Positions 1 through 40,949 of a stretch of DNA of 41,084 nt are shown piece after piece. Position 1 is the stretch's first letter. Each line of letters starts with the position of its first letter. Source of the DNA: a virus (lineage: Duplodnaviria; Heunggongvirae; Uroviricota; Caudoviricetes); IMG/VR virus record IMGVR_UViG_2667527588_000007, positions 1 to 41,084 of that record. One strand, given 5' to 3'. The notes under the pieces are model-generated. The model searched no databases. It was not told the origin of the DNA and saw nothing but the letters and a program-made list of their open reading frames with translations. Both the position numbers and the translations under genes were made by a program.

Positions 1-1254
1 ATGCTGGAACAAATGGGCATTGCCGCGAAGCAAGCCTCGTATAAATTAGCGCAACTCTCCAGCCGCGAAAAAAATCGCGTGCTGGAAAAAATCGCCGATG
101 AACTGGAAGCACAAAGCGAAATCATCCTCAACGCTAACGCCCAGGATGTTGCTGACGCGCGTGCCAATGGCCTTGGCGAAGCGATGCTTGACCGTCTGGC
201 ACTGACGCCCGCACGGCTGAAAGGCATTGCCGATGATGTGCGCCAGGTGTGTAACCTCGCCGATCCGGTGGGGCAGGTAATCGATGGCAGCGTACTGGAC
301 AGCGGCCTGCGTCTTGAGCGTCGTCGCGTACCGCTGGGGGTTATTGGCGTGATTTATGAAGCGCGCCCGAACGTGACGGTTGATGTCGCTTCGCTGTGCC
401 TGAAAACCGGTAATGCGGTGATCCTGCGCGGTGGCAAAGAAACGTGTCGCACTAACGCTGCAACGGTGGCGGTGATTCAGGACGCCCTGAAATCCTGCGG
501 CTTACCGGCGGGTGCCGTGCAGGCGATTGATAATCCTGACCGTGCGCTGGTCAGTGAAATGCTGCGTATGGATAAATACATCGACATGCTGATCCCGCGT
601 GGTGGCGCTGGTTTGCATAAACTGTGCCGTGAACAGTCGACAATCCCGGTGATCACAGGTGGTATAGGCGTATGCCATATTTACGTTGATGAAAGTGTAG
701 AGATCGCTGAAGCATTAAAAGTGATCGTCAACGCGAAAACTCAGCGTCCGAGCACATGTAATACGGTTGAAACGTTGCTGGTGAATAAAAACATCGCCGA
801 TAGCTTCCTGCCCGCATTAAGCAAACAAATGGCGGAAAGCGGCGTGACATTACACGCAGATGCAGCTGCACTGGCGCAGTTGCAGGCAGGCCCTGCGAAG
901 GTGGTTGCTGTTAAAGCCGAAGAGTATGACGATGAGTTTATGTCATTAGATTTGAACGTCAAAATCGTCAGCGATCTTGACGATGCCATCGCCCATATTC
1001 GTGAACACGGCACACAACACTCCGATGCGATCCTGACCCGCGATATGCGCAACGCCCAGCGTTTTGTTAACGAAGTGGATTCGTCCGCTGTTTACGTTAA
1101 CGCCTCTACGCGTTTTACCGACGGCGGCCAGTTTGGTCTGGGTGCGGAAGTGGCGGTAAGCACACAAAAACTCCACGCGCGTGGCCCAATGGGGCTGGAA
1201 GCACTGACCACTTACAAGTGGATCGGCATTGGTGATTACACCATTCGTGCGTAA
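1..1254 (+). CDS. proA: gamma-glutamyl phosphate reductase
   Basis: 417-aa ORF starting at position 1; colinear full-length match to enterobacterial ProA as recalled; followed by tRNA-Thr as in the E. coli proA-thrW locus. Confidence 0.95.
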
Positions 1255-1368
1255 ATAAAACCGGGTGATGCAAAAGTAGCCATTTGATTCACAAGGCCAT
1301 TGACGCATCGCCCGGTTAGTTTTAACCTTGTCCACCGTGATTCACGTTCGTGAACATGTCCTTTCAGG

Positions 1369-1444
1369 GCCGATATAGCTCAGTTGGTAGAGCAGCGCAT
1401 TCGTAATGCGAAGGTCGTAGGTTCGACTCCTATTATCGGCACCA
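1369..1444 (+). tRNA. thrW: tRNA-Thr (anticodon CGU)
   Basis: 76-nt sequence GCCGATATAGCTCAGTTGGTAGAGCAGCGCATTCGTAATGCGAAGGTCGTAGGTTCGACTCCTATTATCGGCACCA; cloverleaf with anticodon loop TTCGTAA; encoded CCA end. Confidence 0.93.
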
Positions 1445-1458
1445 TTTAAATCAATAAG

Positions 1459-2622
1459 TTACACATCATTAGTACCTTCCTTATTTTTTGACTGGGACAA
1501 ATTTGGGACCGATGGGTTCAGGATCGAGTCTATTTGCCGTGCGTGCTCGGTAAGGTGATTAGGTGCAAGGTGAGCATATCGACGAACCATTTCGATAGAC
1601 TCCCAGCCTCCCATTTCCTGTAACACTGACAACGGGACTCCGGCTTGAACCAGCCAACTTGCCCAGGTGTGTCTCAGGTCGTGAAATCTGAAATCATCAA
1701 TACCAGCCCGTCTCAGCGCCGCTTTCCAGGCTGTGTTTGCGTCATACCGCATCTTCCTTACTGTTGGCGCTTTCGTTCCGTCTGGTTTGGTACAGCTTTC
1801 CTTGTACACAAATACCCAACGGTGATGATTCCCGATTTGTTTTTTCAAAACGCGACATGCAGTATCATTCAGCGCAACGCCGATTGCGCGGTTTGATTTA
1901 CTCTCTTCCGGGTTTATCCATGCCACTCGGCGCTGCATATCTATTTGTTGCCATTCAAGGTTGATGATGTTCGAGCGTCTTAAGCCTGTTGCCAGTGCAA
2001 ATTCAACAACAGACTTTAATGGCTCCGGACATTCATCAATCAGCCTTTGTGCTTCATGGGGCTCCAGCCAGCGGATCCGTTTATTCTTTGGTTGAGGCAC
2101 TTTAATAATTGGTGCCTTATCCAGCATTTTCCATTCACGCTCTGCGGCTCTTAGTAGGGCCTTTATAAATGAAAGATGCGTAGCCTTCGTTGCAACGGAC
2201 GCTGGTTTTGGCGTGTATTCTGGAACAGGTTTCCCTTTTTTTCTGCATGCTTCTGCCCTGAGTTTCCAGTTTTCCTCATGACGCCGGTTCGTCATTTTCT
2301 GCATTGCTGAATAAATTTTTGATTCAGTAATGTCTCTTAGTTGCATTCCTGCGAAATGTTGAAGCCAGAATCCGATCCGGCTTTTGTCATCGTCCAGTGA
2401 TTTTTTATGTGCTTTCTCTTCAAGCCACCTGACACATGCTTCCTCGAACGTTATATCAGGTATTTCACCAAGTTTACTGACCCGCCATGCTTCAGCCTTT
2501 AGCTTGTCATGGAGTTCTGTCGCCTGCCTTTTGTCCTTTGTTCCAAGAGACTGTTTAAATCTTTTACCGTTCGGCAATGTGAAACTGGCGTACCATATTT
2601 CACCTCTGCGGAAGAGTGACAT
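1459..2622 (-). CDS. int: tyrosine-type phage integrase
   Basis: 387 aa; C-terminal [39 protein letters not shown] (R..H-x-x-R..Y catalytic signature); GAGGAA RBS upstream of start; adjacent to tRNA. Confidence 0.92.
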
Positions 2623-2849
2623 TTTCTTTCCTCTGTTATGCCATCACCCGCGCTCACCTGGACAGTATGCAGCGGAGACTGAAGAGCCGCAATGCAGGCT
2701 TGTCGTGTTGTGAGGTAAGGAGATTTATTCTTAGTGGGATCTTTGCGTGTTGCCTGAAGACGCCCTGTGCGTATCCAGTTAATAGCAGTCGGTCTGGATA
2801 TCTTGAGAAAATGACAGGCCTCATCGAGTGTGAGGCTGTATGGCTCCAT
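2499..2849 (-). CDS. xis: excisionase / AlpA-like HTH regulator
   Basis: Internal start [31 protein letters not shown] (AlpA/Xis-type HTH); TAATG stop-start overlap with upstream gene; AGGTG RBS; 3' end overlaps int start in another frame. Confidence 0.6.
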
Positions 2850-3193
2850 TATTTCACCTCTTGCTGTGACATTGTTGAAAAACGGATACCAGCTCGTTGC
2901 TGCCAGACGATCCAACCGAGAGTCATATCCCATGCCATGTATTCGTTATCGCCGTTTTTTGCTCTCCGACGATCGACTGTTTTACCGAAACGCTTTTCCA
3001 TAAATAATTCATAGGCTGCGCGTTCATCTGGCTCAACTTCCAGAGATGCCAGTGCAATCCGTGCCAGTTCTAAATCATTTTCAAGCTCAGCGCGAATCTC
3101 AGCGAATGCACTCTGTGTTAAGGCGAACTCAATGCTCTGCACTTTATTCCGTGCGCGCTCAAGCAGTGCATGGTAGTTAATTTCGGTTGTCAT
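2849..3193 (-). CDS. hypothetical protein
   Basis: 114-aa ORF translationally coupled (ATGA overlap) to the upstream PAPS-reductase-like gene. Confidence 0.5.
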   Translation of the reverse strand: MTTEINYHALLERARNKVQSIEFALTQSAFAEIRAELENDLELARIALASLEVEPDERAAYELFMEKRFGKTVDRRRAKNGDNEYMAWDMTLGWIVWQQRAGIRFSTMSQQEVK

Positions 3194-4068
3194 ACCCCTA
3201 CCTCTTCGAATTCCAATTCCAATTGATCACCCCAGATTTCACATGACTCTGAACACGAACCGGTATCGAATCGCCTGGCCTGTACCATCGCCTGATACAA
3301 ATTTCTGTAGTCGCTGTTGGCAGACATTCTGGCAATTCCGTCAAGCGTCAGGTGACCACGGTACATAATGTCTTTACCTGTTCTGCGATGACCATCCCTG
3401 ACGTGTTTGCCTGTAACCAGCTCATTAAAAACTCGCATCAGACCTGGTTCGTCTTTACATGCAAGCCCCAGCTTTTGCGTTGACTTTTTGATGCAGAAAA
3501 CACAGTTCCCGAGATGCTCCGGGATTTGCAAATCAAAAGGTTGTTTTCGCCACCACCGGATAACATCCGACTTATCAAAATCTGACAGCTCGGCAAGATA
3601 CCGGACGCCCGATTTCGGTTTCAGCCTACGGGGTTCGTCTGCACGAATACCCAGCCATGTGATGTAATTACCTCGCCCGAAATGGTTATCGCAGTATTTC
3701 GTGAAAGGGATGAGTTTTAGCCTGTCAGTACAGAACGCGCCGCCGATGTATGGCGTGCCGTACTTTTTAACCATGTCCATAAACGGTTTAAGCACCGGCA
3801 TTCGTGTCTGAATATCCTTTGGCTCCCATTCTGTATAACCATTTGGCTGCCCAAGCTCAGGATTTATATCGACCTGTAACACAGTTAGTGGTATGTCCCA
3901 GAGCTTTACAACCTCCCGGATAAAGCGGTATGTCAGCGGATGTTCGCAACCGGTATCCATAAAGATGTAGCAGACGTTATTGCCAGCCTTTCTTTGTTCT
4001 TCCATCAGGTGAACAAGATATGCGGATGTTCTCCCGCCAGAAAAACTAACTACATGAGTTATGCACAT
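3190..4068 (-). CDS. phosphoadenosine-phosphosulfate reductase family protein (PP-loop ATP pyrophosphatase fold)
   Basis: Start chosen at MCITHVVSFSGGRTS (PP-loop SGG-x-x-S motif near N-terminus); longer ORF-track start would overlap the upstream gene by over 100 nt. Confidence 0.7.
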   Translation of the reverse strand: MCITHVVSFSGGRTSAYLVHLMEEQRKAGNNVCYIFMDTGCEHPLTYRFIREVVKLWDIPLTVLQVDINPELGQPNGYTEWEPKDIQTRMPVLKPFMDMVKKYGTPYIGGAFCTDRLKLIPFTKYCDNHFGRGNYITWLGIRADEPRRLKPKSGVRYLAELSDFDKSDVIRWWRKQPFDLQIPEHLGNCVFCIKKSTQKLGLACKDEPGLMRVFNELVTGKHVRDGHRRTGKDIMYRGHLTLDGIARMSANSDYRNLYQAMVQARRFDTGSCSESCEIWGDQLELEFEEVGV

Positions 4069-4595
4069 TTGCGTAATTCCGATAACTCGTTGAAGCGTTC
4101 CATAAACATCCCGTAGGCATGGCCCGGTGCCAGTGGAATAACTTTGAACATCTCTGTTGCCGGGATACCTTCCAGTACAGGCCATAAAGAGCCATCATCA
4201 AGCCCGAGATCACGGCGTTCGGTTGCCAGCATAATGAGATCGGCATATTTCACTGGCGTGCTCATAACAGGAGGTAACCCGTATTTCTCACGGATTACTG
4301 CATCTATTTTTTCTTCCATCCGTTTATAGTCAGGAAGAAGGCGTTTCAGTGGTGCGGGGATGTCCTGGCAATACGCTTCTGTTGCATCATGCATTAACGC
4401 TTCAAAAGCAAACTCCTGCGGCACCAGCTGGCTGCAAAGCACCGCATGTTGGGCGACACTGTAGAAGTGAGAAAGATGACCGGCAAAGCGACAGATATTT
4501 GAAAGGGAAACCGCGATATCGTTAATCACGATGTCGTCTTTATTTATCTTGTCATAATAAAAATGCTTCCCGGAAAAAGTTTTAATAAATGACAT
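4059..4595 (-). CDS. HD-domain phosphohydrolase (YfdR-like 5'-deoxynucleotidase family)
   Basis: H..HD metal-binding motif (HFYSVAQHAVL ... ALMHDATEAY); ATG at 4595 preceded by GGAGAA RBS; track start at 4622 is a GTG. Confidence 0.7.
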   Translation of the reverse strand: MSFIKTFSGKHFYYDKINKDDIVINDIAVSLSNICRFAGHLSHFYSVAQHAVLCSQLVPQEFAFEALMHDATEAYCQDIPAPLKRLLPDYKRMEEKIDAVIREKYGLPPVMSTPVKYADLIMLATERRDLGLDDGSLWPVLEGIPATEMFKVIPLAPGHAYGMFMERFNELSELRKCA

Positions 4596-4722
4596 TTTGT
4601 TCTCCACGTATATGCGCTGCACCGCGCTGAGTTTGGGTAAAAGGAAGCCCTCACCATCCGGTGATTATTGAGTTAATTACGTTTCCATAAATGCCCCCGC
4701 AGGGGCATTTGCAGTAATGAAA

Positions 4723-5547
4723 TCAGGCGGTGAAAGTACCAATAAAGGTTTCTACTTTGCTGTCTTTGAATTTCTCAACAAGCAGATCACGAAATTCGTT
4801 AGCCATATCTTCCTGCACTGCTTCCAGCTGAATAATGCGCAGAACCAGTACAGGACGATCGCCAGTGATAATGCTGAGGCGTAATTTAAACGGACGTTCT
4901 TTCAGACCTTCAAACGGAACGCATTTAAATTCAAATGCCACTGGCATAATGTCTTTGGTCTTCGCTTCGACAGATTCCATCAGGGAGCGTTTGCCGCTGA
5001 AGTCATTATCTTCAAAATCAGCGGTCTGGTTTGCTTCAATCGTGATTTTACGGATTGCCGCAGCCGCTTTTGTTGCCTGAATGGCGTCACCATTAGCATC
5101 AAAGCCCACAAGGTAGTCGGCCCAGTCTTCAATCCATTCTGCCAGTGACTTCTGGGAGTTACGCTCGCCGTTAACAGACAACAGAGCAGAGAACGGTGCT
5201 GTCTTTTTCAGTTTGAGTGTGGCGGTGTTATCTGCGTGACCTGGTTCATCAATAGTACCCAGGTTAAGCACACTGACGGCACGCATATTATCAGCATCGA
5301 TAAAGCAGCGGGTGCCTTCATCTGCAAGATCTTTAGAATAACGGGTAAAGTCATCGATGCTGGCAGTGGAAAGCGCACCACGGAAACGGAAGCGATTTAA
5401 ATTAAATTTTTCCAGATCATGAATGCGGAAATTCTCAGGCAATGCCACAGCATCGGCACCAATCTTACTGATAATTTCATTAACACCCTGAGCAGAAATA
5501 AGGGCATGGATTTGATTAATTGCGGTTGCGTCTAAGTTCTGAGACAT
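4723..5547 (-). CDS. YfdQ-like (DUF2303 family) phage protein
   Basis: 274 aa beginning [12 protein letters not shown]; recalled as conserved prophage family adjacent to an HD-hydrolase as in CPS-53-type prophages; GAGGA RBS. Confidence 0.55.
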
Positions 5548-5612
5548 AATAAGTCCTCACTATATAAAGATATTCAGTGATGAGATAAATAATCAGTTAA
5601 TTAAAAACGATA

Positions 5613-5975
5613 TTAACGACCTGCTGCGCGGAGTTTTCCGTCAGGTTCACCGGCAAGAGTCAGCAACTGTCCCTGGTCTTCCTGCAGAATAGTCAGGCGA
5701 CCACCGCGATTGACATACATCGGCGTTTCGGTGGTGTCTTCTTCGGAAATTTTCCCGCGGTTAGTCGGGCGAACATATGAGAGTTTGTGTTTGATTTTCA
5801 CTCGGTTCTCATCAAACGGTTCGATTTCCAGGTTGAGCGAGACCTTACCTTTGGTTTTCGTGTTCATCACACCGGAAGCGACTTCACTGAGAACTGCGCC
5901 GATTTTGGTTTCAAATACGCCGCCGTCCAGCTCCCCGATAAATGCCTGCACATCAGTACTGCGTTCGCTAGCCAT
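5613..5975 (-). CDS. hypothetical phage protein
   Basis: Start MASERSTDVQAF preceded by GAGGAG RBS at optimal spacing; the 100-aa N-terminal extension in the ORF track has no RBS and is arginine/leucine-rich. Confidence 0.6.
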   Translation of the reverse strand: MASERSTDVQAFIGELDGGVFETKIGAVLSEVASGVMNTKTKGKVSLNLEIEPFDENRVKIKHKLSYVRPTNRGKISEEDTTETPMYVNRGGRLTILQEDQGQLLTLAGEPDGKLRAAGR

Positions 5976-6443
5976 TTTGCTGCTCCTCATCATATCGACC
6001 CTGCAAGGTCGGTTAGTTTCTCCACAAAACAGAGAAGAACACCTGCGGTGGCTGCCGCCCGGATGGATTGGGTTATGAGCCCGTCGTCCGGTGATGCTCT
6101 TCTCTGTTTTGTAAAAAGGACGGTACCAGCCGGAAGCAAGGGTACAAGCTGGTACCGCCAAGACTACACACAGCATAAAGTTGTGGTGCCGGGTGCCTCC
6201 CGGTGCCTGGCGAAGGTTGCACACCAGGCGGGTGGGTATCCACAGAAGGTCGACTGTCAGCCTCAACCTTAACCCGCGTGCGCTGAGCCGCATTCACCAC
6301 AACGCTAAGGATTCTCTCTGGTTGAAAATACTTAGCTGTTATGTGCCTGCTTTTAGCCACATCAGGCGAGGTGGACCTAGTTATTCCCCAACAACAAGGA
6401 TTCGGTTAATCTGGTTATCCCCAACAACGCAAAAGGAAAAGAA

Positions 6444-6878
6444 ATGTCCGGTAATATCTATACGCTGTACAAATCCCACTGTGAAAATGTTGGAAAGTAT
6501 CGGGGCATTGAAATCAGTGGGGTAGTGTCATCAGTCGAAATAAGCAAAGTTGAATCAAGGGCAACATTACTTACTCTTCTGGACCTTGTCTTACATGAGC
6601 ACCGGAAGAAATTCGGCACTCCCTATAATCAGTTGAATGGGAAAAAGGCTCTGGTTCACCTTATTCTGATGAAGCATCACTGGATGCCAAAACAGATTAA
6701 TGAGATGAAATTTGATGAACTTCTTCTTTCAATTCAGGATGAACTCACACTTGATAAAATAAGCGTAACCGCCCAGAAATTTTTAGATTATCGAGACTGG
6801 AGATCACAAATTCATCACTTTGATGATTTTGACGAAAATGAATGGGATCCTAATTTGTCTGCACAATATCTAAAGTAA
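6444..6878 (+). CDS. hypothetical protein (AT-rich accessory gene in immunity region)
   Basis: 144-aa ORF with AAGGAA RBS, visibly AT-rich relative to neighbours; opposite strand to the leftward early operon. Confidence 0.6.
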   Translation: MSGNIYTLYKSHCENVGKYRGIEISGVVSSVEISKVESRATLLTLLDLVLHEHRKKFGTPYNQLNGKKALVHLILMKHHWMPKQINEMKFDELLLSIQDELTLDKISVTAQKFLDYRDWRSQIHHFDDFDENEWDPNLSAQYLK

Positions 6879-7056
6879 CATCCTGTGATAAAACCGTGAT
6901 TTCCTGATCCAGTTTTTTTAAGGAGTCTATTGTTTCCTGTCGATAAGACAGCACTTCACGAAGCTGGTTTATAGCTGCCAGCTTCTTTGTCATCCACTCA
7001 TAAATTTCCTCATCTGTGTAGCCAGGCGCGACGATTTTGGGTTCTGTTTTGTGCAT
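6850..7056 (-). CDS. hypothetical small protein (first gene of leftward operon)
   Basis: ATG at 7056 preceded by AGGAG RBS at 7-nt spacing; 68 aa; track start at 7071 is TTG; 3' end overlaps the 6444-6878 gene convergently by 29 nt. Confidence 0.55.
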   Translation of the reverse strand: MHKTEPKIVAPGYTDEEIYEWMTKKLAAINQLREVLSYRQETIDSLKKLDQEITVLSQDVTLDIVQTN

Positions 7057-7104
7057 TTCACATCTCCTCAAGTTATCAGTTACTTGTTGATGGGGACCAG
7101 ATTG

Positions 7105-7137
7105 TTAAAGAGCTAAGCGTCCTGTAGGGCGCTTTTT
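7105..7137 (+). terminator. intrinsic terminator-like hairpin followed by T-run
   Basis: GCGTCCTGTAGGGCGC stem-loop followed by TTTTTTG. Confidence 0.4.
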
Positions 7138-7290
7138 TGTTGCTAACGAATCATCCTGGACTTCATATGCCCCAGGCGGCTACTTCGTGGGCGTCCTGCC
7201 TGTTCGTTTTTGACATTTACTGACTGCTTACGACACATGCACCGTGTTGCAACCAGATTTTGTTGTAATCCTGTAGTTGGTCTGGAACAA

Positions 7291-7319
7291 AAGATAAAAT
7301 TAAATTGCGAGATATGCAA
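7291..7319 (-). promoter_or_regulatory. candidate leftward early promoter (PL-like)
   Basis: On minus strand TTGCAT, 17-nt spacer, TATCTT; -35 lies within an operator repeat. Confidence 0.35.
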
Positions 7320-7341
7320 GTGATATTTGCGAGATATGCAA
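7305..7341. promoter_or_regulatory. OL-like operator: two direct copies of TTGCGAGATATGCAA (TTGC-N7-GCAA)
   Basis: Identical 15-mers at 7305-7319 and 7327-7341, 22 bp centre to centre; same TTGC-N7-GCAA architecture occurs in the cI-cro intergenic region. Confidence 0.6.
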
Positions 7342-7351
7342 ATTTATAGGT

Positions 7352-7375
7352 AATAAAAAGCCACCTTTCGGTGGC
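7352..7375 (-). terminator. intrinsic terminator downstream of cI
   Basis: GCCACC-TTTC-GGTGGC hairpin with U-run on the minus-strand transcript, 20 nt after the cI stop. Confidence 0.6.
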
Positions 7376-7395
7376 CGATGGATGGGATATTGAGG

Positions 7396-8088
7396 TTAAT
7401 TATGTCTCTTAAGGGTTTGCGACTGACTGATTAAGACCTTTCCAAAGACCATGAATCGGTGTTCGTTTTCGCTAGTAATTCCCCATTCACGGTAAATCTG
7501 GTTATCAGAAATCACCAGCAGTTTGTCAGGAATCATTTGAAGTCTTTTAACGTATATTTTGTCATCAAAACCAAAGACATATATACCATCACCATCAAAC
7601 TGATTGATGCTGACATCAACGAAGATGAGATCTCCTGGCTCAATGGTTGGACACATACTGTCCCCACGAACGTTGATAACTTTGATGTGATTGGCTGGTC
7701 GTCCGCCGAACATTGATACAGCATTATCAGTTCTGTATTCGATGGCATGAATCACATCAATGACATCACCGCCCTGGATAAGGCCATTTCCCGCACTGGC
7801 ACTGATATCCAGCATTTCAATACGGAACACATCCTTCACCTGCGCAACATCCTCATTGTTACTGTTTTTATATACAGTATTACTTTTGTGGGCAGAGGTA
7901 AAGAGATCAGCAATATCAACACCTAAGCTCTTGGCAATATTACTCAGTGTTTGTTCGGTAAATTGTTTTTGCTTACCCGTTTCTAAGCGCGAGATGTTCG
8001 CCGCATCTACTCCTATCGCTTCAGCGAGATCGGCGATTTTCATGTTCTTCGCTTGGCGAAGTTGTCTGACTCGGTTTCCTATGTTCAT
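7396..8088 (-). CDS. cI: CI-type prophage repressor (XRE HTH + S24 LexA-like peptidase domain)
   Basis: N-terminal HTH (RVRQLRQAKNMKIADLAEAIGVDAANISRLETG), C-terminal S24 signature (GDSMCPTIEPGDLIFVD ... KRL); divergent from cro; no SD before ATG. Confidence 0.9.
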   Translation of the reverse strand: MNIGNRVRQLRQAKNMKIADLAEAIGVDAANISRLETGKQKQFTEQTLSNIAKSLGVDIADLFTSAHKSNTVYKNSNNEDVAQVKDVFRIEMLDISASAGNGLIQGGDVIDVIHAIEYRTDNAVSMFGGRPANHIKVINVRGDSMCPTIEPGDLIFVDVSINQFDGDGIYVFGFDDKIYVKRLQMIPDKLLVISDNQIYREWGITSENEHRFMVFGKVLISQSQTLKRHN

Positions 8089-8185
8089 GCGTTTATTACA
8101 TTTCTTTATTGCGTGATAAGCAAATCAACTTGCGCAAAATAATTGCGTGAAATAACATGCATAACGCGCAATATTTGGAGGGCGT
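8089..8185. promoter_or_regulatory. OR-like operator/promoter region between cI and cro
   Basis: TTGCGTGATAAGCAA (8109-8123) matches TTGC-N7-GCAA; candidate PR -35 TTGCGC (8130-8135) and -10 TAACAT (8153-8158); GGAGGG RBS for cro. Confidence 0.55.
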
Positions 8186-8446
8186 ATGCAATCACCATTA
8201 CGAAATGTGCGTAAGGCGCATGGTTTCACTTTGCAGCATGTTGCTGCGGGTGTTCAAGTCAATCCAGCGACGTTGAGTCGTATTGAGAGGCTGGAGCAGA
8301 TTCCATCTATCGAGCTTGCAGAACGTTTAGCCAATTTTTTTAAGGGTGAAGTCAGCGAAATGCAGATTCTTTATCCGGCACGTTTTCAATCTAGCCAAAA
8401 CCAGAATGGGTTTAAACCACAGGAACAGGAGGTGAACCGTGGGTAA
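8186..8446 (+). CDS. cro: Cro-like HTH regulator
   Basis: 86 aa; HTH QHVAAGVQVNPATLSRIER; divergent from cI; strong RBS. Confidence 0.8.
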   Translation: MQSPLRNVRKAHGFTLQHVAAGVQVNPATLSRIERLEQIPSIELAERLANFFKGEVSEMQILYPARFQSSQNQNGFKPQEQEVNRG

Positions 8447-8990
8447 GCATCACTGGAAAGTAGAAAAACAGCCTGAGTGGTACGTGAAAGCTGTCAGAAA
8501 AACTATCGCAGCGTTGCCGGGGGGGTACGCTGAAGCTGCTGACTGGCTGGATGTAACAGAGAACGCATTATTTAACCGCCTTCGTGCCGATGGCGATCAG
8601 ATTTTCCCGCTGGGATGGGCAATGATTTTGCAACGTGCTGGTGGAACTCACTTCATTGCTGACGCTGTGGCGCAGTCTGCAAATGGCGTCTTTGTGTCTC
8701 TTCCTGATGTCGAGGATGTGGACAACGCCGATATCAACCAACGCCTGCTGGAGGTCATTGAACAGATCGGCAGTTATTCAAAACAGATTCGTTCAGCAAT
8801 TGAAGACGGTGTAGTGGAACCGCATGAGAAGACAGCAATTAACGACGAGCTGTACCTCTCAATTTCGAAGCTGCAGGAGCATGCAGCACTGGTCTACAAA
8901 ATTTTTTGCATTTCAGAAAGTAATGACGCCCGCGAGTGTGCAGCTCCGGGCGCCGTGGCGTGTCGTGACTGTGGAGAAACTAACGCATGA
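8439..8990 (+). CDS. hypothetical early regulatory protein
   Basis: GTG start with AGGAGG RBS; 183 aa with C-terminal Cys cluster; occupies the position after cro. Confidence 0.5.
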
Positions 8991-9325
8991 ACAGTTTAAC
9001 AACACACTACCGTCGCTCGCAACTGATTGCGCTTCCTGTACCGGGTGGAAAAGCGAAGGTGGAGTATTGCTATGCAGTAAATGTACCAGGTGGCAGGGTA
9101 ATTGTAACCCACAGCTTTGCAGAGTGGGCTGTGGGTGATTTTAACCGGCAAAAGGAGACAGTCCTTTGCGACAAGTTAACCGCTGGTTCAAAGATCACTA
9201 CGGAGTACCCGTCAGAGTCATTCGTTGGGAGCCGGAAACACAACGGGTTATCTACCTCCGTGAAGGCTATGAGCATGAGTGCTTCAGCCCGCTCGAACAG
9301 TTTCGTCGTAAATTCAGGGAAATAG
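8987..9325 (+). CDS. hypothetical protein (frame ambiguity with overlapping TTG-start small ORF 9166-9345)
   Basis: ATGA-coupled start at 8987; C-terminal half is Ser-rich and low complexity, whereas an alternative frame from 9166 (TTG after AAAGGAGA) encodes a more protein-like 59-aa product. Confidence 0.35.
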
Positions 9326-9334
9326 AGGTCGGTC

Positions 9335-10276
9335 ATGAGCACTAAATTAACCGGCTATGTATGGGATGGTTGCGCAGCGTCAGGCATGAAATTATCCAGC
9401 GTGGCAATTATGGCCCGCCTGGCTGATTTCAGTAATGACGAAGGTGTGTGCTGGCCATCAATTGAAACCATTGCCCGTCAGATTGGCGCGGGGATGAGTA
9501 CCGTCAGGACGGCTATCGCACGGCTGGAAGCAGAAGGCTGGTTAACGCGTAAGGCGCGTCGCCAGGGTAACCGCAATGCGTCGAATGTTTATCAGCTTAA
9601 CGTTGCGAAGCTTCAGGCAGCGGCATTTTCTCAACTGTCAGATTCTGACCCGTCAAAATCTGACGCATCAAAATCTGACCCGTCAAAATTTGATGCGTCG
9701 AAATCTGGCAAAAAAGCGGGTTTTCACCCGTCAGAATCTGGCGGGGATCCGTCAGTAAAATCAAAACATGATCCGTCAGATAAAAAACCTTCTCGTCCGG
9801 ACGCTTCGCAACCGGACACGCAGACGGATGAACAGGATTTTTTAACTCGCCATCCTGATGCGGTTGTATTCAGCCCTAAAAAGCGCCAGTGGGGAACGCA
9901 GGATGATTTGACCTGCGCACAGTGGCTCTGGAAAAAAATCATCGCCCTGTACGAGCAAGCCGCCGAATGTGACGGCGAGGTGGTTCGTCCCAAAGAACCG
10001 AACTGGACAGCCTGGGCAAACGAAATTCGCCTAATGTGTGTGCAGGATGGTCGTACTCACAAACAAATCTGCGAGATGTACAGCCGCGTCAGCCGCGATC
10101 CGTTCTGGTGCCGTAACGTGCTCAGCCCGTCGAAGCTGCGGGAAAAATGGGATGAGCTTTCCCTGCGCTTATCACCGTCCGTCAGCACGTACACCGAAAA
10201 ACGCGAAGACCCGTACTTCAAATCCAGTTACGACAACGTGGACTACAGCCAGATCCCGGCAGGATTCAGGGGGTGA
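9335..10276 (+). CDS. replication initiation protein (lambda O-like, HTH N-terminal domain, internal ori iterons)
   Basis: N-terminal winged-helix (IETIARQIGAGMSTVRTAIARLEAEGWL); 15-bp tandem iterons inside the coding sequence encoding an SD-x-SK peptide repeat. Confidence 0.8.
   Translation: MSTKLTGYVWDGCAASGMKLSSVAIMARLADFSNDEGVCWPSIETIARQIGAGMSTVRTAIARLEAEGWLTRKARRQGNRNASNVYQLNVAKLQAAAFSQLSDSDPSKSDASKSDPSKFDASKSGKKAGFHPSESGGDPSVKSKHDPSDKKPSRPDASQPDTQTDEQDFLTRHPDAVVFSPKKRQWGTQDDLTCAQWLWKKIIALYEQAAECDGEVVRPKEPNWTAWANEIRLMCVQDGRTHKQICEMYSRVSRDPFWCRNVLSPSKLREKWDELSLRLSPSVSTYTEKREDPYFKSSYDNVDYSQIPAGFRG
9644..9703. repeat. origin iterons: four tandem 15-bp repeats (TCTGACCCGTCAAAA-like) with degenerate copies to about 9790 followed by an A/T-rich tract
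   Basis: Direct repeats visible at 9644-9658, 9659-9673, 9674-9688, 9689-9703; A/T-rich 9757-9790. Confidence 0.7.
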
Positions 10277-10278
10277 TC

Positions 10279-10767
10279 ATGAGTCTTTTGAATGAAGTTC
10301 AGAAATTCATTGAAGCCCATCCGGGGTGTACTTCCGGAGACATTGCGGATGCTTTTGCAGGTTACTCACGGCAGCGCGTTCTGCAGTCAGCAAGCAAGTT
10401 ACGTCAGAGTGGGCGTGTGGCTCACCGTTGTGAAGGAGATACACGCAGACATTTCCCACGCCTGACTGAGAGAGCGCAGAAGCCGGAACCACAACCAGTT
10501 CGTGAAACCAGACCTGTGCGCAATTTCTATGTCGGCACTAACGATCCCCGGGTGATTTTGTGCCTGACCCGCCAGGCGGAAGAACTGGAGTCCAGGGGCT
10601 TATACCGTCGTGCTGCAACGGTGTGGATGGCGGCATTCCGTGAAAGCCACTCCCAGCCAGAACGAAACAATTTTCTGGCGCGTCGTGAGCGGTGCTTACG
10701 GAAAAGCAGCAAGCGCGCTGTATCGAGTGATGAGTGGTATCTGTCAGGGAATTACGTGGGGGCGTAA
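10279..10767 (+). CDS. hypothetical protein (C-terminal region weakly PerC-like)
   Basis: ATG at 10279 after AGGGGG; 162 aa; C-terminal W/R-rich segment recalls PerC-family activators (low confidence). Confidence 0.45.
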   Translation: MSLLNEVQKFIEAHPGCTSGDIADAFAGYSRQRVLQSASKLRQSGRVAHRCEGDTRRHFPRLTERAQKPEPQPVRETRPVRNFYVGTNDPRVILCLTRQAEELESRGLYRRAATVWMAAFRESHSQPERNNFLARRERCLRKSSKRAVSSDEWYLSGNYVGA

Positions 10768-11093
10768 TGACGACGTTAACTCAATGCCAGCAGCAGGTGC
10801 TGGATATGCTGATTTCTTACCAGAAAGAGCGTGGCTTTCCGCCAACCAATCAGGAGGTGGCAACCATGCTGGGATACCGTTCAGTGAATGCAGCGGTAGA
10901 GCATCTTCGTGCACTGGAGAAAAAAGGCGTCATCACGATAAAGCGTGGCGTGGCCCGGGGGATAACGCTTCATACCGCGGTGAAGGACGACGACAGCGAG
11001 GCGGTCGGGATTATCCGCGCACTGCTTGCCGGTGAGGAAAACGCCAGGCTGCGTGCAGCCCACTGGTTACATGAGAGAGGCCTGAAAGTATGA
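10767..11093 (+). CDS. LexA N-terminal DNA-binding-domain homolog (no peptidase domain)
   Basis: TLTQCQQQVLDMLISYQKERGFPPTNQEVATMLGYRSVNAAVEHLRALEKKGVITIKRGVARGITL aligns by eye with LexA residues about 5-70; TAATG coupling to upstream gene. Confidence 0.7.
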   Translation: MTTLTQCQQQVLDMLISYQKERGFPPTNQEVATMLGYRSVNAAVEHLRALEKKGVITIKRGVARGITLHTAVKDDDSEAVGIIRALLAGEENARLRAAHWLHERGLKV

Positions 11094-11479
11094 AGCTGAT
11101 CTTGCCTTTCCCGCCCAGCGTGAACACGTACTGGCGACACCCCAACAAAGGGGCGTTTGCTGGTAAGAGTCTGATAAGCGCGGCGGGGCGAAAATTCCAG
11201 AGCGCGGCGTGCGCAGCAATAGTTGAGCAGTTACGTCGTCTGCCGAAACCAACGTCGGCACCTGCTTCAGTGGAGATCGTGTTGTTTCCTCCGGATAACC
11301 GGATCCGCGATCTGGACAACTATAACAAGGCGCTGTTTGACGCCCTGACCCACGCGGGTGTGTGGGAAGACGACAGTCAGGTGAAAAGAATGCTGGTGGA
11401 GTGGGGACCGGTTATCCCGGAAGGGAAGGTCGAGATCACTATCAGTAAGTACGAGAAAACGGCGGGTGCAGCCGCCTGA
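11090..11479 (+). CDS. rusA: Holliday junction resolvase RusA
   Basis: 129 aa; LPFPPSVNTYWRH ... RDLDNYNKALFDALTHAGVWEDDSQV matches RusA catalytic Asp cluster; GAGAGAGG RBS. Confidence 0.85.
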   Translation: MKLILPFPPSVNTYWRHPNKGAFAGKSLISAAGRKFQSAACAAIVEQLRRLPKPTSAPASVEIVLFPPDNRIRDLDNYNKALFDALTHAGVWEDDSQVKRMLVEWGPVIPEGKVEITISKYEKTAGAAA

Positions 11480-11498
11480 TCAAGAGGAGAAACGAAGT

Positions 11499-12296
11499 AT
11501 GAATAATCTGATGGTCATTGATGGTATTGAAGTTCGTCGTGATACTTATGGGCGTTACAGCCTGAACGATCTGCACAGGGCTGCCGGTTCTCTGGATAAG
11601 CATAAGCCTGCATTCTGGCTCCGCAATGAGCAAACTGAACGTTTAATAAGCGAGTTGCAGATTTGCAACTCGGTCAATATAGAGCCAGTTAACGTTATTC
11701 GTGGCGGAAATAACCAGGGGACGTATGTCTGCAAAGAACTGGTGTATGCCTATGCAATGTGGATCAGCCCGTCATTCCATCTGAAGGTGATCCGTACTTT
11801 CGACATGGTAACCAGCGCACCGGAAAAATTATCCGGACAGGCTGCTGACAAGATGCAGGCTGGTGTGATTCTGCTGGACTTTATGCGCCGGGAATTAAAC
11901 CTGTCTAACTCTTCAGTGCTTGGTGCCTGTCAGAAGCTTCAGGAGGCTGTTGGCTTACCGAATCTGGCACCGCGCTATGCCATTGATGCTCCTGCTGATG
12001 CACACGATGGCTCAAGTCGCCCGACACTGTCACTGAGTGCATTGCTGAAACAGTATGGTATCCGCCTGACGGCTAATCAGGCATATCACCAGATGGCGAA
12101 GCTGGGGATCGTCGAACAGCGCGAACGATACAGCCGTACCGCGATTAACAACATTAAAAAATTCTGGTCGCTGACGGCGAAAGGCTGCATGTTCGGCAAG
12201 AACATCACCAGTCCCGCAAATCCGCGCGAGACGCAGCCGCATTTCTTCGAATCCCGGTTCCCTGAGCTGTTAAAGCTGCTCGATACCGTTCATTGA
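11499..12296 (+). CDS. KilA-N domain protein (antirepressor-like)
   Basis: Start MNNLMVIDGIEVRRDTYGRYSLNDLHRAAG after AGAGGAGA RBS; KilA-N-type N-terminal domain. Confidence 0.65.
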   Translation: MNNLMVIDGIEVRRDTYGRYSLNDLHRAAGSLDKHKPAFWLRNEQTERLISELQICNSVNIEPVNVIRGGNNQGTYVCKELVYAYAMWISPSFHLKVIRTFDMVTSAPEKLSGQAADKMQAGVILLDFMRRELNLSNSSVLGACQKLQEAVGLPNLAPRYAIDAPADAHDGSSRPTLSLSALLKQYGIRLTANQAYHQMAKLGIVEQRERYSRTAINNIKKFWSLTAKGCMFGKNITSPANPRETQPHFFESRFPELLKLLDTVH

Positions 12297-13306: not shown

Positions 13307-14059
13307 ATGAACCTTGAAGCCTTACCGAAATATTACTCCCCGAAATCTCCAAAACTGAGCGATGACGCCCCGGCGACAGGCTCTGGTGGTTTAACGATTA
13401 CGGATGTGATGGCTGCGCAGGGGATGGTGCAGTCGAAAGCACCGCTTGGGTTTGCCTTATTCCTGGCAAAAGTTGGTGTTCAGGATCCTCAGTTTGCGAT
13501 TGAAGGTCTGCTCAATTACGCGATGGCACTGGATAACCCGACATTGAATAAATTGAGTGAAGAAACCCGGCTACAGATCATTCCTTACCTTGTGAATTTT
13601 GCCTTTGCTGATTATTCCAGGTCTGCGGCAAGTAAGGCTCGCTGTGAGCATTGTGCTGGTACTGGATTTCATAATGTATTGCGCGAAGTGGTGAAACACT
13701 CCAGAAGCGGGGAGTCTGTTATCAAGGAAGAGTGGGTGAAGGAACTATGTCAGCATTGTCATGGTAAGGGAGAAGTCAGCACAGCGTGCAGAGGGTGTAA
13801 GGGTAAAGGTATTGTCCTGGATGAAAAAAGAACCCGGCTTCATGGTACGCCTGTTTATAAGATTTGTGGGCGTTGCAATGGAAAACGGTTTAGTCGTTTA
13901 CCAACCACACTGGCGCGGCATCATGTCCAGAAACTGGTACCAGACCTGACGGATTATCAGTGGTACAAAGGATATGCAGATGTCATTGATAAACTGGTTA
14001 CAAAGTGCTGGCAGGAGGAATCTTACGCTGAAGCACAATTGAGAAAGGTGACAAGATAA
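13307..14059 (+). CDS. Q: late-gene antitermination protein Q
   Basis: 250 aa with CxxC...CxxC zinc-finger region (CEHCAGTG ... CQHCHGKG ... CRGCKGKG); positioned immediately upstream of late promoter and lysis genes. Confidence 0.75.
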   Translation: MNLEALPKYYSPKSPKLSDDAPATGSGGLTITDVMAAQGMVQSKAPLGFALFLAKVGVQDPQFAIEGLLNYAMALDNPTLNKLSEETRLQIIPYLVNFAFADYSRSAASKARCEHCAGTGFHNVLREVVKHSRSGESVIKEEWVKELCQHCHGKGEVSTACRGCKGKGIVLDEKRTRLHGTPVYKICGRCNGKRFSRLPTTLARHHVQKLVPDLTDYQWYKGYADVIDKLVTKCWQEESYAEAQLRKVTR

Positions 14060-14090
14060 GTGATCTTCGCCGAAAATGGTGACATCATGC

Positions 14091-14119
14091 TTGCAATTTT
14101 CAAAAAACATGGATAAGAT
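14091..14119 (+). promoter_or_regulatory. candidate late promoter (PR'-like)
   Basis: TTGCAA, 17-nt spacer, TAAGAT directly downstream of Q. Confidence 0.4.
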
Positions 14120-14167
14120 TTTCTCAACGATGGGCTTTATGTATCTGCTGTTGATAACCTTCAAGAA

Positions 14168-14190
14168 CTCGCCATTGAGCGGGTTTTTTA
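14168..14190 (+). terminator. candidate tR'-like terminator
   Basis: Short hairpin CTCGCC-ATTGA-GCGGG followed by TTTTTTATT. Confidence 0.35.
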
Positions 14191-14261
14191 TTGTGTAAAA
14201 ACAGAATGACGGTATTAATTAGTAATATAATTATTCGACCATACAACTAGGGGTCGAAAAA

Positions 14262-15047
14262 ATGTATGTTTTTGAGTTAATCAAGCCAGGCAGTAATCTT
14301 AAGTTTGAAAACAGAGAGTTAGAATGGACGTTTAATAACTTATTATCCCATTTAGAAACTGCATTTTATGATGCTAATGTAGCATTAAATTTATTCGAAC
14401 AGGAAAGAACTAAGAATAACAGTAAATTCGATAATATTTCTCAGACATGGCAAGCTGATGTACAGAAACGACAAGCACTGGAAATGCTGGTTCGTAAAGA
14501 GTTTGGTTATCAACCTTATGAATATTCAGAACAGGTTTTTTCAGAGGTCGAGCTACGTCTAAAAAGAGAAAAATGGAATAACGGTGAATATCCGTTGGCT
14601 CATCAACACAGATTGATCTTCTTACATGCAAAATCATTTCTCTACGCTTTGGATGCTATTGATAAATTTTTAAAGGTAATTTCAAAAGAAAATGGCGCGC
14701 CAGAGAACATTAAAAAATTGCATGAACAGCTTTCTAAAGACTTTCCGGATTTAAGAAAGGTAAGGAATTCAGCTCAACACATGGAAGACAGAGTTCGTGG
14801 GCTTGGTGCAGAGAAAGAACCAAAGCCAATAAAACTCAAACCTGTAAATAATATTCATGTTGTTGCACCTCAGGGGGCATTGATGTTGAATAACTTATTC
14901 GGAACTAAATTTGGGTGCACTATGGCTGATGGCTATTATGGTGAAGTAGATATTTCGACAGAGTCTTTGGCAAAGTTGCAAAATTTAATCCAAAAAGTTT
15001 TTAATTCCTTCAGTTGGGAAGGACCAAAGCAACACCTTCCCCGATAA
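14262..15047 (+). CDS. hypothetical protein with HEPN-like RNxxxH motif (candidate abortive-infection/defence moron)
   Basis: 261 aa, AT-rich, all-helical composition; motif RNSAQH fits HEPN R-x4-H; own TATAAT -10 (14226-14231) and own terminator (15065-15097); located between Q and holin. Confidence 0.6.
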   Translation: MYVFELIKPGSNLKFENRELEWTFNNLLSHLETAFYDANVALNLFEQERTKNNSKFDNISQTWQADVQKRQALEMLVRKEFGYQPYEYSEQVFSEVELRLKREKWNNGEYPLAHQHRLIFLHAKSFLYALDAIDKFLKVISKENGAPENIKKLHEQLSKDFPDLRKVRNSAQHMEDRVRGLGAEKEPKPIKLKPVNNIHVVAPQGALMLNNLFGTKFGCTMADGYYGEVDISTESLAKLQNLIQKVFNSFSWEGPKQHLPR

Positions 15048-15943: not shown

Positions 15944-16319
15944 GCTGGTTATTGTTGCCTTCTTTGTTACCGTCATTGGTTCCTTCATCTGGTCTGTCGG
16001 GCATTACTACAGCAAATATCAGCACGAAAAGGAGCGTGCTGATGAGGCTGTACGAAATGCTGAATCGGCAACTGCCATTACCAATAACGTCCTGCAATCA
16101 ATACAAATCGTAAATACAGCACTGGAGGCTAGCCAGCATGCAAAACAACAAATCGCACTGGAGTCACAGAGAACCCAGGAAGATATCAAAGTGGCTGTTG
16201 CGAATGATGATTGCGCTTCACGTCCTGTGCCTGCTGCCGCTACTGACCGGTTGCGGAAGTACGCGGACAGTTTACGTGAGCACCCCAGTAGCACCACTGT
16301 CAACCACCCTAACTTCTGA
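15927..16319 (+). CDS. Rz: i-spanin Rz
   Basis: 130 aa; N-terminal TM helix then coiled-coil; overlaps endolysin stop; GGTGGGG RBS. Confidence 0.8.
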   Translation: MKLRYKLVIVAFFVTVIGSFIWSVGHYYSKYQHEKERADEAVRNAESATAITNNVLQSIQIVNTALEASQHAKQQIALESQRTQEDIKVAVANDDCASRPVPAAATDRLRKYADSLREHPSSTTVNHPNF

Positions 16320-16452
16320 AACACCGATTCCAATTATACCTAGTCCACTGACATATGGTGCTAGCCTAGACCTGAATGCAAGTTTGTTATCTGCATTAGG
16401 GCAGTGCAATAGAGATAAAAAGGCTATCCGCAGTATAAACAATGCTAGATGA
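16204..16452 (+). CDS. Rz1: o-spanin Rz1 (lipoprotein), overlapping Rz in +1 frame
   Basis: MMIALHVLCLLPLLTGC signal with lipobox LLTGC, Pro-rich mature part; starts inside Rz and extends past its stop. Confidence 0.7.
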   Translation: MMIALHVLCLLPLLTGCGSTRTVYVSTPVAPLSTTLTSETPIPIIPSPLTYGASLDLNASLLSALGQCNRDKKAIRSINNAR

Positions 16453-16467
16453 AGATTTTAATTTAAA

Positions 16468-16493
16468 TTGAAGATGCCTATTACTAGACATCT
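16468..16493. terminator. palindromic hairpin between converging Rz1 and minus-strand moron
   Basis: AAGATG-12 nt-CATCTT stem flanked by A/T-rich sequence on both sides. Confidence 0.35.
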
Positions 16494-16530
16494 TTATAAT
16501 TTATGCTCAAACCAAAGTGGATTTGTAATA

Positions 16531-16905
16531 TTAAAGACTATTTAGGAGACTCTGAATAATAGGCCATAAAGTTAATGTGTTTGCACCAGCTGAGTAAAAT
16601 CGCTCCATCAGTTGTAGAGGTGTTGATGACTGATTAAACTTGATATCATTTAAAATGTCGTATATTTCTTGTAGCTTCTCTGCACCAAGTTTATCGTTAA
16701 TTTCACTTAAGTTATTTTGTATGGCGATTTCTGCTTCTTTTATAAGCCGAACTGTTTCTGCTGAGTAATGAATATTGTTGGAAAGAAAAGTATTAGCTGA
16801 ATCAATAATTTCATAACCAACATCAGCACCAAATGATTTGTTTCCAATTATTTTGATGTTTTCGCATCCCTCAATGCGATAAGCAACGGTTTTCTTTTCA
16901 CTCAT
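16531..16905 (-). CDS. hypothetical protein (AT-rich minus-strand moron)
   Basis: 124-aa ORF antisense to the late operon, flanked by AT-rich intergenic DNA; weak AGGT RBS. Confidence 0.55.
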   Translation of the reverse strand: MSEKKTVAYRIEGCENIKIIGNKSFGADVGYEIIDSANTFLSNNIHYSAETVRLIKEAEIAIQNNLSEINDKLGAEKLQEIYDILNDIKFNQSSTPLQLMERFYSAGANTLTLWPIIQSLLNSL

Positions 16906-17032
16906 GTTATAACCTGTGTTTAGTTACTTTTATTAGAACCTTGTTATCAGATTTTTCTCATAAAGGAAAGAGTGAAAGAGAAAAATGAATCTCTTTTGTC
17001 AAATATGTCTATCAGATTAAAGAGAGTATTTT

Positions 17033-29294: not shown

Positions 29295-29322
29295 CCAGGA
29301 TTCCCCTCACAGGTATTGCTGG

Positions 29323-29350
29323 TTGTAAGTCATAAATAGAGTGATAGAAT
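29323..29350 (+). promoter_or_regulatory. candidate sigma70 promoter for tail-cluster moron
   Basis: TTGTAA, 16-nt spacer, TAGAAT upstream of the 29386 ORF. Confidence 0.4.
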
Positions 29351-29385
29351 TAATGCACATTTAGAAAAATGTTAATAGGCGAAAA

Positions 29386-29916: not shown

Positions 29917-29934
29917 TTAATAAAATTCATTACA

Positions 29935-29965
29935 AGGCCACCTTCTAATAGGTGGCTTTTTTATT
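29935..29965 (+). terminator. intrinsic terminator after tail-cluster moron
   Basis: GGCCACC-TTCTAATA-GGTGGC hairpin followed by TTTTTTATTTT. Confidence 0.8.
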
Positions 29966-29977
29966 TTCGGAGTGTAT

Positions 29978-40594: not shown

Positions 40595-40949
40595 ATGCGT
40601 GCGCGCGAGATACAATTTCTCGCGCATTGTGTAACCGGCGACAAAACCCTGTTATCATTATAGCGACCCGTTTAGATGGGCCATTTGTGCCCCAACAGCT
40701 TCTGGGTATAGATTTCCTCGGCCCTGTATAGATACTTTGCTAAAGAGTATTTTAATGGTATTTTGCTTACGTACTATTCTTCTAACGAATGTCTGCCTTA
40801 TCCTGTGAGCTGCCTTCGCTCAGCATTGGCCTGTTTCTCGTTGATTTATATACTGCGACACTAACATAGGCGGATATGTCCGCTCCTCGCTCATAACAGA
40901 CATTCACTACAGTTATGGCAGAAAGGTATGCATGCTGGGTGGGGAAAGT

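Follow-up and report, generated by a model that had tools for sequence, protein, structure and literature searches.

We analysed a 41,084-nucleotide stretch of DNA from a virus of the class Caudoviricetes (IMG/VR record IMGVR_UViG_2667527588_000007, positions 1 to 41,084), hereafter the window, and focused on a block of accessory genes on its minus strand between the immunity gene cI and the excisionase gene xis. Reading from the cI side, the order is yfdP, yfdQ, yfdR, a homologue of λ ninC (the ninC-like gene), a yfdT-like open reading frame (ORF), xis and int. The left end of the window is that of an SfV/CPS-53-type prophage integrated at tRNA-Thr, and the findings presented here make it fairly probable that the block was pieced together from independent accessory modules of the early-left region of such a prophage and is not a three-enzyme pathway. 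The features of the locus are as follows.

1-1254: proA, at the opening of the window, giving the context of the left prophage end.
1369-1444: tRNA-Thr, from a tRNA call and as the sole Rfam match.
1459-2622, minus strand: tyrosine integrase gene (Pfam Phage_integrase and RefSeq), adjoining tRNA-Thr and proA.
2499-2849, minus strand: xis, HTH_17 excisionase (Pfam HTH_17 and RefSeq).
2849-3193, minus strand: yfdT-like ORF, 114 amino acids (PHROG 660; RefSeq 'DNA-binding protein').
3059-4060, no strand assigned: exchanged cassette, spanning the ninC-like gene together with about 45 codons at the start of the next ORF, delimited by the breaks in homology to SfV and K-12.
3190-4068, minus strand: ninC-like gene for a protein of the PP-loop, phosphoadenosine phosphosulfate (PAPS) reductase fold, 292 amino acids (λ NinC homology; PHROG 424 and 33262).
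4059-4595, minus strand: yfdR, HD-domain phosphohydrolase, 178 amino acids (PHROG 318; K-12 identity).
4689-4710, minus strand: GC-rich 9-bp hairpin in the yfdQ-yfdR spacer (sequence and fold).
4723-5547, minus strand: yfdQ, DUF2303 protein, 274 amino acids (Pfam).
5613-5975, minus strand: yfdP, 120 amino acids (PHROG 204, E 1.2e-49; RefSeq 'protein YfdP' in a near-identical locus).

A first-pass annotation of this DNA had described three coupled genes between xis and cI, encoding a PAPS-reductase-like protein, an HD-domain hydrolase and a DUF2303 protein. The three ORFs are present on the minus strand at the limits assigned to them, although the start of the first had to be moved from 4185, which is only a stop-to-stop ORF limit, to the ATG at 4068, because its homologues open with MxxVVSFSGG and the RefSeq coding sequence measures 879 bp. 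As a unit the trio was incomplete: yfdP (5613-5975), whose ATG at 5975 has a GAGGAG 8 nt on its 5′ side, had been overlooked, and the yfdT-like ORF (2849-3193) is also part of the early-left block. The coupling was confirmed for yfdR and the ninC-like gene, which overlap by 10 nt, and for the ninC-like stop and the yfdT-like start, which overlap in ATGA, but not for yfdQ and yfdR, which lie 127 nt apart. This gap contains the hairpin, whose arms AAAUGCCCC and GGGGCAUUU are kept in K-12 and SfV. It was absent from the output of the terminator scan, and the fold of the whole spacer reached a z-score of only -1.5. A canonical terminator was ruled out, since the hairpin is not followed by a T-run and was missed by the terminator scan; it could serve in RNA processing or stability, or terminate transcription weakly. 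A promoter scan gave fewer matches than in shuffled sequence, and an Rfam scan of window positions 1-12000 returned nothing beyond tRNA-Thr. A RefSeq locus that is 99.9% identical and occupies the same proA/tRNA-Thr site carries the same gene models and names. Each gene of the block falls into a named family, and public annotation already contains the arrangement, so the locus is in these respects largely ordinary.

The ninC-like protein was 79% identical to λ NinC over residues 2-287 (tblastn against phage records), and the gene is its orthologue. Matches to PHROG 424 and 33262, both named 'phosphoadenosine phosphosulfate reductase', reached E values of about 1e-90, and PF01507 (PAPS_reduct) matched the N-terminal part only (E 4.7e-8). 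The PP-loop SGG motif that had been noted earlier is present as SFSGGRTS at residues 8-15. Among 44 homologues, with identities down to 50%, S8, S10, G11, G12, R13 and S15 of this loop were invariant, as were cysteines C113, C126, C189, C192 and C276, with C272 nearly so. The AlphaFold2 model had a predicted local distance difference test score of 87, except for the tail (270-292), which carries the sequence GSCSESCE and is disordered. The best Foldseek matches of the model were the adenosine phosphosulfate (APS) reductase 2goy, a [4Fe-4S] protein, and the PAPS reductases 6vpu and 1sur (probability 1.0, template modelling (TM) scores 0.37-0.50, E about 5e-5), followed by the sulfur transferase LarE and by MnmA. 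In the PADLOC defence library the best profile was SspD (E 2.4e-14), covering profile positions 2-123 of 277, and the BrxP and DndC profiles matched weakly (E about 5e-3 for DndC). The six neighbouring ORFs scanned (2849-7071), which are prophage genes, gave no PADLOC match, to the Dnd/Ssp partners (DndA/D/E and SspA/B/C) or to anything else. Against the CysH equivalog PRK02090 the protein scored 20.5 bits, the cut-off being 154.

DNA comparisons delimited the segment that carries this gene. Identity to SfV and K-12 CPS-53 was 97-98% on both flanks, ended at window position 3058 and restarted at 4061, and the DNA match to the Shiga toxin (Stx) phage Lys12581Vzw covered 3181-4070 only, that is, the ninC-like gene itself. 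In K-12 CPS-53 and SfV, the slot is occupied by yfdS (DUF551), and yfdT has another 5′ end there; the product of the yfdT-like ORF matched K-12 YfdT and SfV orf28 in its C-terminal two thirds and differed at the N-terminus. The start of K-12 yfdS uses the identical 10-nt overlap with the yfdR stop, indicating that the coupling between yfdR and the ninC-like gene is a property of the slot and not a partnership. Among 80 near-identical yfdQ loci from IMG/VR, 58 carried YfdS in this position, 9 NinC, 12 neither and one was truncated.

The distribution of the genes agreed with an exchange of this kind. The yfdPQR block was found in 2456 of 5426 complete E. coli genomes (at least 80% coverage), whereas the version with the PAPS-like gene was found in 272; the trio does recur in enterobacterial prophages, as the first-pass annotation had proposed, but narrowly when set against yfdPQR. 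The ninC allele of the window occurred in 429 genomes, including 72 plasmid copies, and one plasmid context was devoid of yfd genes. When 160 NinC loci from viral and genome collections were compared, yfd genes lay within 6 kb almost only where NinC was at least 93% identical. After dereplication at 85% identity, any yfd gene was found within 6 kb in 3 of 71 loci, and a Dam domain (PF05869) in 15 of the 71, either fused (5) or within 3.5 kb (10). Relatives of the ninC-like gene were found in the λ nin region, in Stx2a-type phages (93% identity), in phage-like plasmids and in many Vibrio, Salmonella and other phages. By these sequence comparisons, the ninC-like gene is an independently mobile, gene-sized (~1-kb) cassette that replaces yfdS. 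Separately, ninC loci with the λ-like 79% match were found on small or very low-coverage contigs (L084-L094, L098 and others) assigned to Pseudomonas, Oceanobacillus, Neobacillus, Bradyrhizobium, Shewanella, Enterococcus, Kitasatospora and a Segatella metagenome-assembled genome; these look like λ DNA contamination of, or spike-in to, public assemblies.

A functional lead came from a Vibrio phage. Residues 3-282 of the ninC-like protein aligned at 55% identity (E 4e-110), with all conserved motifs, to the p0018 product of Vibrio phage 44E38.1, deposited as 'Dam methyltransferase with PAPS reductase domain [Vibrio phage 44E38.1]' (P0074). The genes p0018 and p0019 have been reported as the only ones specific to phages infecting Dnd+ Vibrio crassostreae, and a sensitive phage into which both were recombined plated fully on a Dnd+ host without the retron (Piel et al., bioRxiv 10.1101/2021.05.05.442762). 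A 2026 Nucleic Acids Research paper cites that work as a case of Dnd evasion promoted by a phage PAPS reductase (PMC13551039). The likeness makes a counter-defence role plausible for the PAPS-reductase-like gene. JSS1_004 (PMC12345140) was considered as another anti-Dnd PAPS precedent and rejected, being a T7 gp0.7-like kinase and not a PAPS reductase. The p0018 gene of Vibrio phage 34E29.1 (L245, 24112-25551) was deposited as 'BsuMI modification methylase subunit ydiP', and its product is a PAPS_reduct and Dam fusion identical to the anti-Dnd protein of 44E38.1. Phage 34E29.1 also carries yfdP-yfdQ, between an RNase_T exonuclease and a single-stranded DNA-binding protein (SSB).

The yfdP and yfdQ genes followed a different pattern. 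The DUF2303 assignment of YfdQ was borne out by Pfam (311.9 bits against a cut-off of 26.6, E 4.3e-93, profile positions 2-269 of 269), and each of the 17 diverse loci compared, the window included, had a YfdP homologue of roughly 110-150 amino acids directly upstream of yfdQ. These loci came from E. coli, Salmonella, Stx phages, Vibrio podoviruses, Xanthomonas CP2-like phages, Psychrobacter and metagenomes, with distant YfdQ homologues at 31-57% identity; a viral-contig scan with the YfdQ alignment gave only near-identical E. coli loci, and the diversity was obtained from phage records and distant-homologue seeds. The recurrent neighbours of the pair were genes for an ERF-family annealing protein and a YqaJ exonuclease, together with an RNase_T/DEDD exonuclease gene immediately upstream of yfdP and an SSB gene immediately downstream of yfdQ, and in Stx phage Lys12581Vzw the order was gam-recT-exo-ssb-yfdP-yfdQ. 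This placement in a recombination (Rec) and SSB cluster was seen in Vibrio, Xanthomonas and Stx phages; the window has no Rec genes between cI and xis. YfdP had no match in the Pfam copy searched, in NCBIfam or in PADLOC, and no significant match in the PDB. Neither YfdP nor YfdQ matched recombinase, exonuclease or SSB families in Pfam, PHROG functions or the PDB, and neither had a full-length fold match. Membership of a recombination module, which the first-pass annotation had named as contrary to its own reading, therefore applies in part to yfdQ, by genomic association and not by homology. YfdPQ as a hidden recombinase was likewise rejected, given the lack of homology and a Genome Research 2025 paper that argues against it.

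PDB entry 9o7m, 'YfdQ Protein', which is newer than the fold library used, contains 36 chains of a YfdQ homologue (E 2e-44) that shares 93% identity with ORF37 of Xanthomonas phage CP2; we found no paper for this entry. Among 41 homologues, YfdQ residues 102-107 (P-G-H-A-D-N) were invariant and E137, E140 and D141 were conserved, and these residues could make up a site for metal binding or catalysis in a protein without a recognisable fold. Deletants of yfdQ are sensitive to methyl methanesulfonate and H2O2, as quoted in PMC4776307. From its genomic association, we infer that YfdP-YfdQ is oligomeric and assists the replication or recombination of phage DNA. In-frame deletion fusions of the YfdP N-terminus to the C-terminal part of YfdQ were observed in E. 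coli prophage remnants (P0130 and P0193); they carry PF27127, which is apparently the YfdP family in a Pfam release newer than the copy searched.

The HD-domain assignment of YfdR was also borne out. Residues H50, H69-D70, E73 and D118 are intact, PHROG 318 ('deoxyribonucleoside 5′ monophosphate phosphatase') matched with E 2.6e-109, and RefSeq names the protein 'yfdR: 5′-deoxynucleotidase'. With curated models it fell below the cut-offs (24.2 against 25.9 bits for Pfam YfbR-like and 19.9 against 122 for NCBIfam PRK03826), yet the gene is 98% identical in DNA to K-12 yfdR. Its closest solved relative was the uncharacterised HD protein Atu1052 (PDB 2gz4, E 5.5e-13). An HD homologue followed yfdQ in 2 of the 17 diverse loci, both enterobacterial. 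The role of these genes, which the first-pass annotation regarded as not established, is partly published. Purified K-12 YfdR binds DnaA in a manner that requires Phe46 in domain I (Noguchi and Katayama, PMC4776307), and is a competitor of DiaA and DnaB; when supplied in multicopy, yfdQRT or yfdQRS inhibits initiation at oriC in vivo, as do extracts in vitro, and this inhibition needs both yfdQ and yfdR and not yfdP (PMC4776307). The authors suggested a λ P-like shut-off of host replication in the ancestral phage, and YfdR has much lower affinities for nucleotides than YfbR does (Zimmerman 2008, as quoted in PMC4776307). Of the two sets that suffice, one is kept in the window: yfdQ and yfdR with a yfdT-like gene.

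Taken as a mosaic, the block would comprise three modules. The first, yfdP-yfdQ, is an obligate pair of gammaproteobacterial phages whose usual habitat is a cluster of recombination and single-stranded DNA genes; it has no recognisable enzyme fold, and YfdQ would act as a large oligomer and as an accessory of phage DNA replication or recombination. The second, yfdR, is an HD phosphohydrolase joined to yfdP-yfdQ in enterobacterial phages only; on induction YfdR would help to shut down initiation on the host chromosome, its phosphatase activity on deoxyribonucleoside monophosphates (dNMPs) being weak and secondary. In the third, a λ NinC orthologue has taken the place of yfdS as a gene-sized cassette. 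Its product would catalyse an ATP-dependent adenylation or sulfur transfer, probably metal- or Fe-S-dependent and with a swinging cysteine tail, and its target would be phage DNA or the phosphorothioation machinery of the host, allowing escape from phosphorothioate (PT)-dependent restriction of the Dnd/Ssp type. This escape role is proposed because the homologous PAPS domain of the Vibrio phage has been reported to act so.

Several observations weigh against parts of this interpretation. Within E. coli, 272 of the 429 genomes with a near-identical ninC allele (~63%) have it beside yfdR, and the two genes are translationally coupled here, so a local functional link between YfdR and the ninC-like gene is possible. 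The proposed Fe-S or metal binding by the cysteines of the ninC-like protein would follow from their conservation only. Homologues of Dam and p0019 were searched across the window and neither was found; the anti-Dnd result came from a PAPS-Dam fusion that was moved together with p0019, and the PAPS domain alone was not separated (bioRxiv 10.1101/2021.05.05.442762). Moreover, λ ninC is dispensable in the laboratory. The Genome Research 2025 paper argues that yfdPQR are not hidden recombinases, since some phages carry them besides a full Rec module, and the cluster occurs both with and without such a module. Finally, the inhibition by yfdQRST was seen in multicopy only, strains deleted for these genes showed no phenotype, and the authors concede that overexpression may have created an artefact (PMC4776307).

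These points have to be set beside the alternatives. In the first-pass annotation, the PP-loop enzyme, the HD hydrolase and the DUF2303 protein were candidates for one nucleotide- or DNA-modification pathway evading host defences. The genes do share a strand and an operon, with the stop of yfdR and the start of the ninC-like gene overlapping by 10 nt, in an arrangement repeated in the 272 E. coli genomes; Stx phage Lys12581Vzw combines a diverged DUF2303 gene with the 93%-identical PAPS-like gene, without the HD gene, and Vibrio phage 34E29.1 carries PAPS-Dam and yfdP-yfdQ ~6 kb apart on opposite strands. However, the association is lost beyond near-identical alleles (3/71 dereplicated NinC loci), yfdPQR is about nine times commoner without the ninC-like gene than with it, the borders of the cassette are gene borders, and the slot is mostly occupied by an unrelated DUF551 gene with the same overlap. 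YfdP, YfdQ and YfdR had no PADLOC, Pfam or NCBIfam tie to modification pathways, and no evidence links YfdR to the nucleotide or DNA modification that had been suggested for the HD protein. A single pathway is decidedly unlikely in our judgement; the trio was not supported as one pathway, its members being separate catalogued prophage modules, and the DNA-directed counter-defence role stayed plausible for the PAPS-reductase-like gene alone and not for the trio as one functional unit. Rather unlikely, too, is that yfdPQR forms an anti-defence or nucleotide-pool module, in which a T5 Dmp-like dNMP phosphatase would act on host DNA breakdown products or against nucleotide-based immunity, and YfdPQ would inhibit a host nuclease or sensor. 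The phosphatase and deoxynucleotidase annotations and the intact catalytic residues of YfdR fit this idea, as does the location of the Vibrio yfdP-yfdQ inside a 5.7-kb region in which phages sensitive and resistant to the retron differ. Retron-escape mutations, in contrast, mapped to the exonuclease and not to yfdPQ (bioRxiv 10.1101/2021.05.05.442762), the nucleotide affinities quoted for YfdR are far below those of YfbR, PADLOC gave no match, and the HD gene is missing from most yfdPQ loci.

Two further explanations concern the nature of the genes themselves. That they are decaying prophage cargo without current function could be argued from the cryptic state of K-12 CPS-53, from the existence of in-frame yfdP::yfdQ deletion fusions and from the absence of a replication phenotype after yfdQRST deletion (PMC4776307). 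We consider it very improbable, as ORFs and motifs are intact across the viable isolates SfV and SfIV and the Kati, Stx, Vibrio and Xanthomonas phages, and yfdPQR is 95-99% conserved in thousands of genomes. Least probable of all is that the PAPS-reductase-like gene encodes a true CysH, an auxiliary metabolic function in sulfate assimilation. Its annotation name, its best structural matches and its weak PF01507 and PRK02090 matches would point that way, but its 20.5 bits fall far short of the 154-bit equivalog cut-off, and it shares only ~20% identity, at TM scores of 0.37-0.50, with CysH and APS reductase structures. The PP-loop SGGRTS is intact in the ninC-like protein, whereas SSSFG and SFSGAE occupy this position in the CysH and APS-reductase chains aligned with it. 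The C-terminal motif of CysH is ECGLH, and the ninC-like protein ends with GSCSESCE instead. Relatives of NinC, furthermore, are fused to or located beside a DNA methyltransferase.

With the mosaic as the preferred explanation, the site that follows yfdR is a slot for interchangeable cassettes, and yfdQ is better studied together with yfdP than with yfdR or the PAPS gene, as the pair is invariant and lies beside recombination genes. NinC-type proteins are 55% identical to the sole phage PAPS-reductase domain with a defence-evasion phenotype, which offers a possible function for a long-unassigned λ gene. The value of the locus lies mainly in this testable link between λ NinC and the evasion of phosphorothioate defence, and in the invariant yfdP-yfdQ pair. 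A broader proposal would join two separate ideas. λ NinC and its relatives would be stand-alone counter-defence enzymes against the phosphorothioate-based immunity of Dnd, Ssp and BREX type 4 systems; relying on the ATP chemistry of the PP-loop and on a cysteine or Fe-S centre, they would either mark phage DNA or sabotage the PT machinery of the host. YfdP-YfdQ, for its part, would be a structurally new oligomeric recombination or replication accessory, coupled in enterobacterial phages to a DnaA-targeting HD protein that arrests host replication. We put forward this joint claim tentatively, as possible rather than probable.

Other features of the window were recorded. On the opposite strand of the early-left region, an ECs1072-family phage-associated gene (6444-6878, plus strand; NCBIfam NF033230, E 1.7e-46) is followed by a terminator-like hairpin with a T-run (6960-6985), and SfV homology stops at ~6374, just before the gene, which looks like a moron-type insert. 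Upstream of yfdP, a 226-amino-acid stop-to-stop ORF that extends this gene (5976-6440, minus strand) had no homologues, and RefSeq places a frameshifted pseudogene at the equivalent of about 5990-6300; this region is a long leader or a decayed gene. A replication-initiator-like protein (9335-10276, plus strand) contains the peptide repeats DPSKSD, ASKSD and PSKFDASKS at about 9640-9720, which imply that the gene holds direct repeats at the DNA level, resembling iterons, as lambdoid origins do. Islands of low GC content at 14001-15000, 16001-17000, 29001-30000 and 40001-41000 (0.36-0.39, where the structural genes have about 0.55) point to additional insertions of morons or cargo.

Compared with known systems, the closest counterparts of the block are yfdP-yfdQ-yfdR-yfdS-yfdT of K-12 CPS-53 and orf32-orf28 of SfV, which share yfdPQR at 97-98% DNA identity, with the same order, spacing and position by xis and int; the window differs in carrying the ninC-like cassette in place of yfdS and the 5′ end of yfdT. 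With HD 5′-deoxynucleotidases of the YfbR type, and presumably with T5 Dmp, YfdR has in common the HD motif residues and the PHROG 318 annotation, but it falls under the curated cut-offs, its reported affinity is low and its documented property is DnaA binding. The solved CysH-type structures (2goy, 6vpu and 1sur) are the closest folds to the ninC-like protein and share a flexible, cysteine-bearing C-terminal tail and a CxxC downstream of the core, whereas identity is about 20%, the tail motif is another one and the window protein has an extra helical segment (197-267). DndC and SspD belong to the same superfamily and are equally cysteine-rich, but only the nucleotide-binding half aligns, and the window gene is phage-borne, without Dnd/Ssp partners nearby. 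The ninC-like protein is thus not a component of a DndC/SspD system, yet it may work like those sulfur- and adenylate-transfer enzymes. With p0018 of Vibrio phages 44E38.1 and 34E29.1 it shares the homologous PAPS-reductase-like domain; the Vibrio protein continues into a C-terminal Dam (PF05869) domain and has p0019 as its neighbour, whereas the window protein ends at residue 292 and stands alone. λ NinC, the product of ORF-290 of the nin region, has the same length, PP-loop and cysteine set. Its gene lies between ninB and ninD in the early-right nin region, and that of the window in the early-left region between yfdR and xis; membership of the NinC family does not depend on genomic location.

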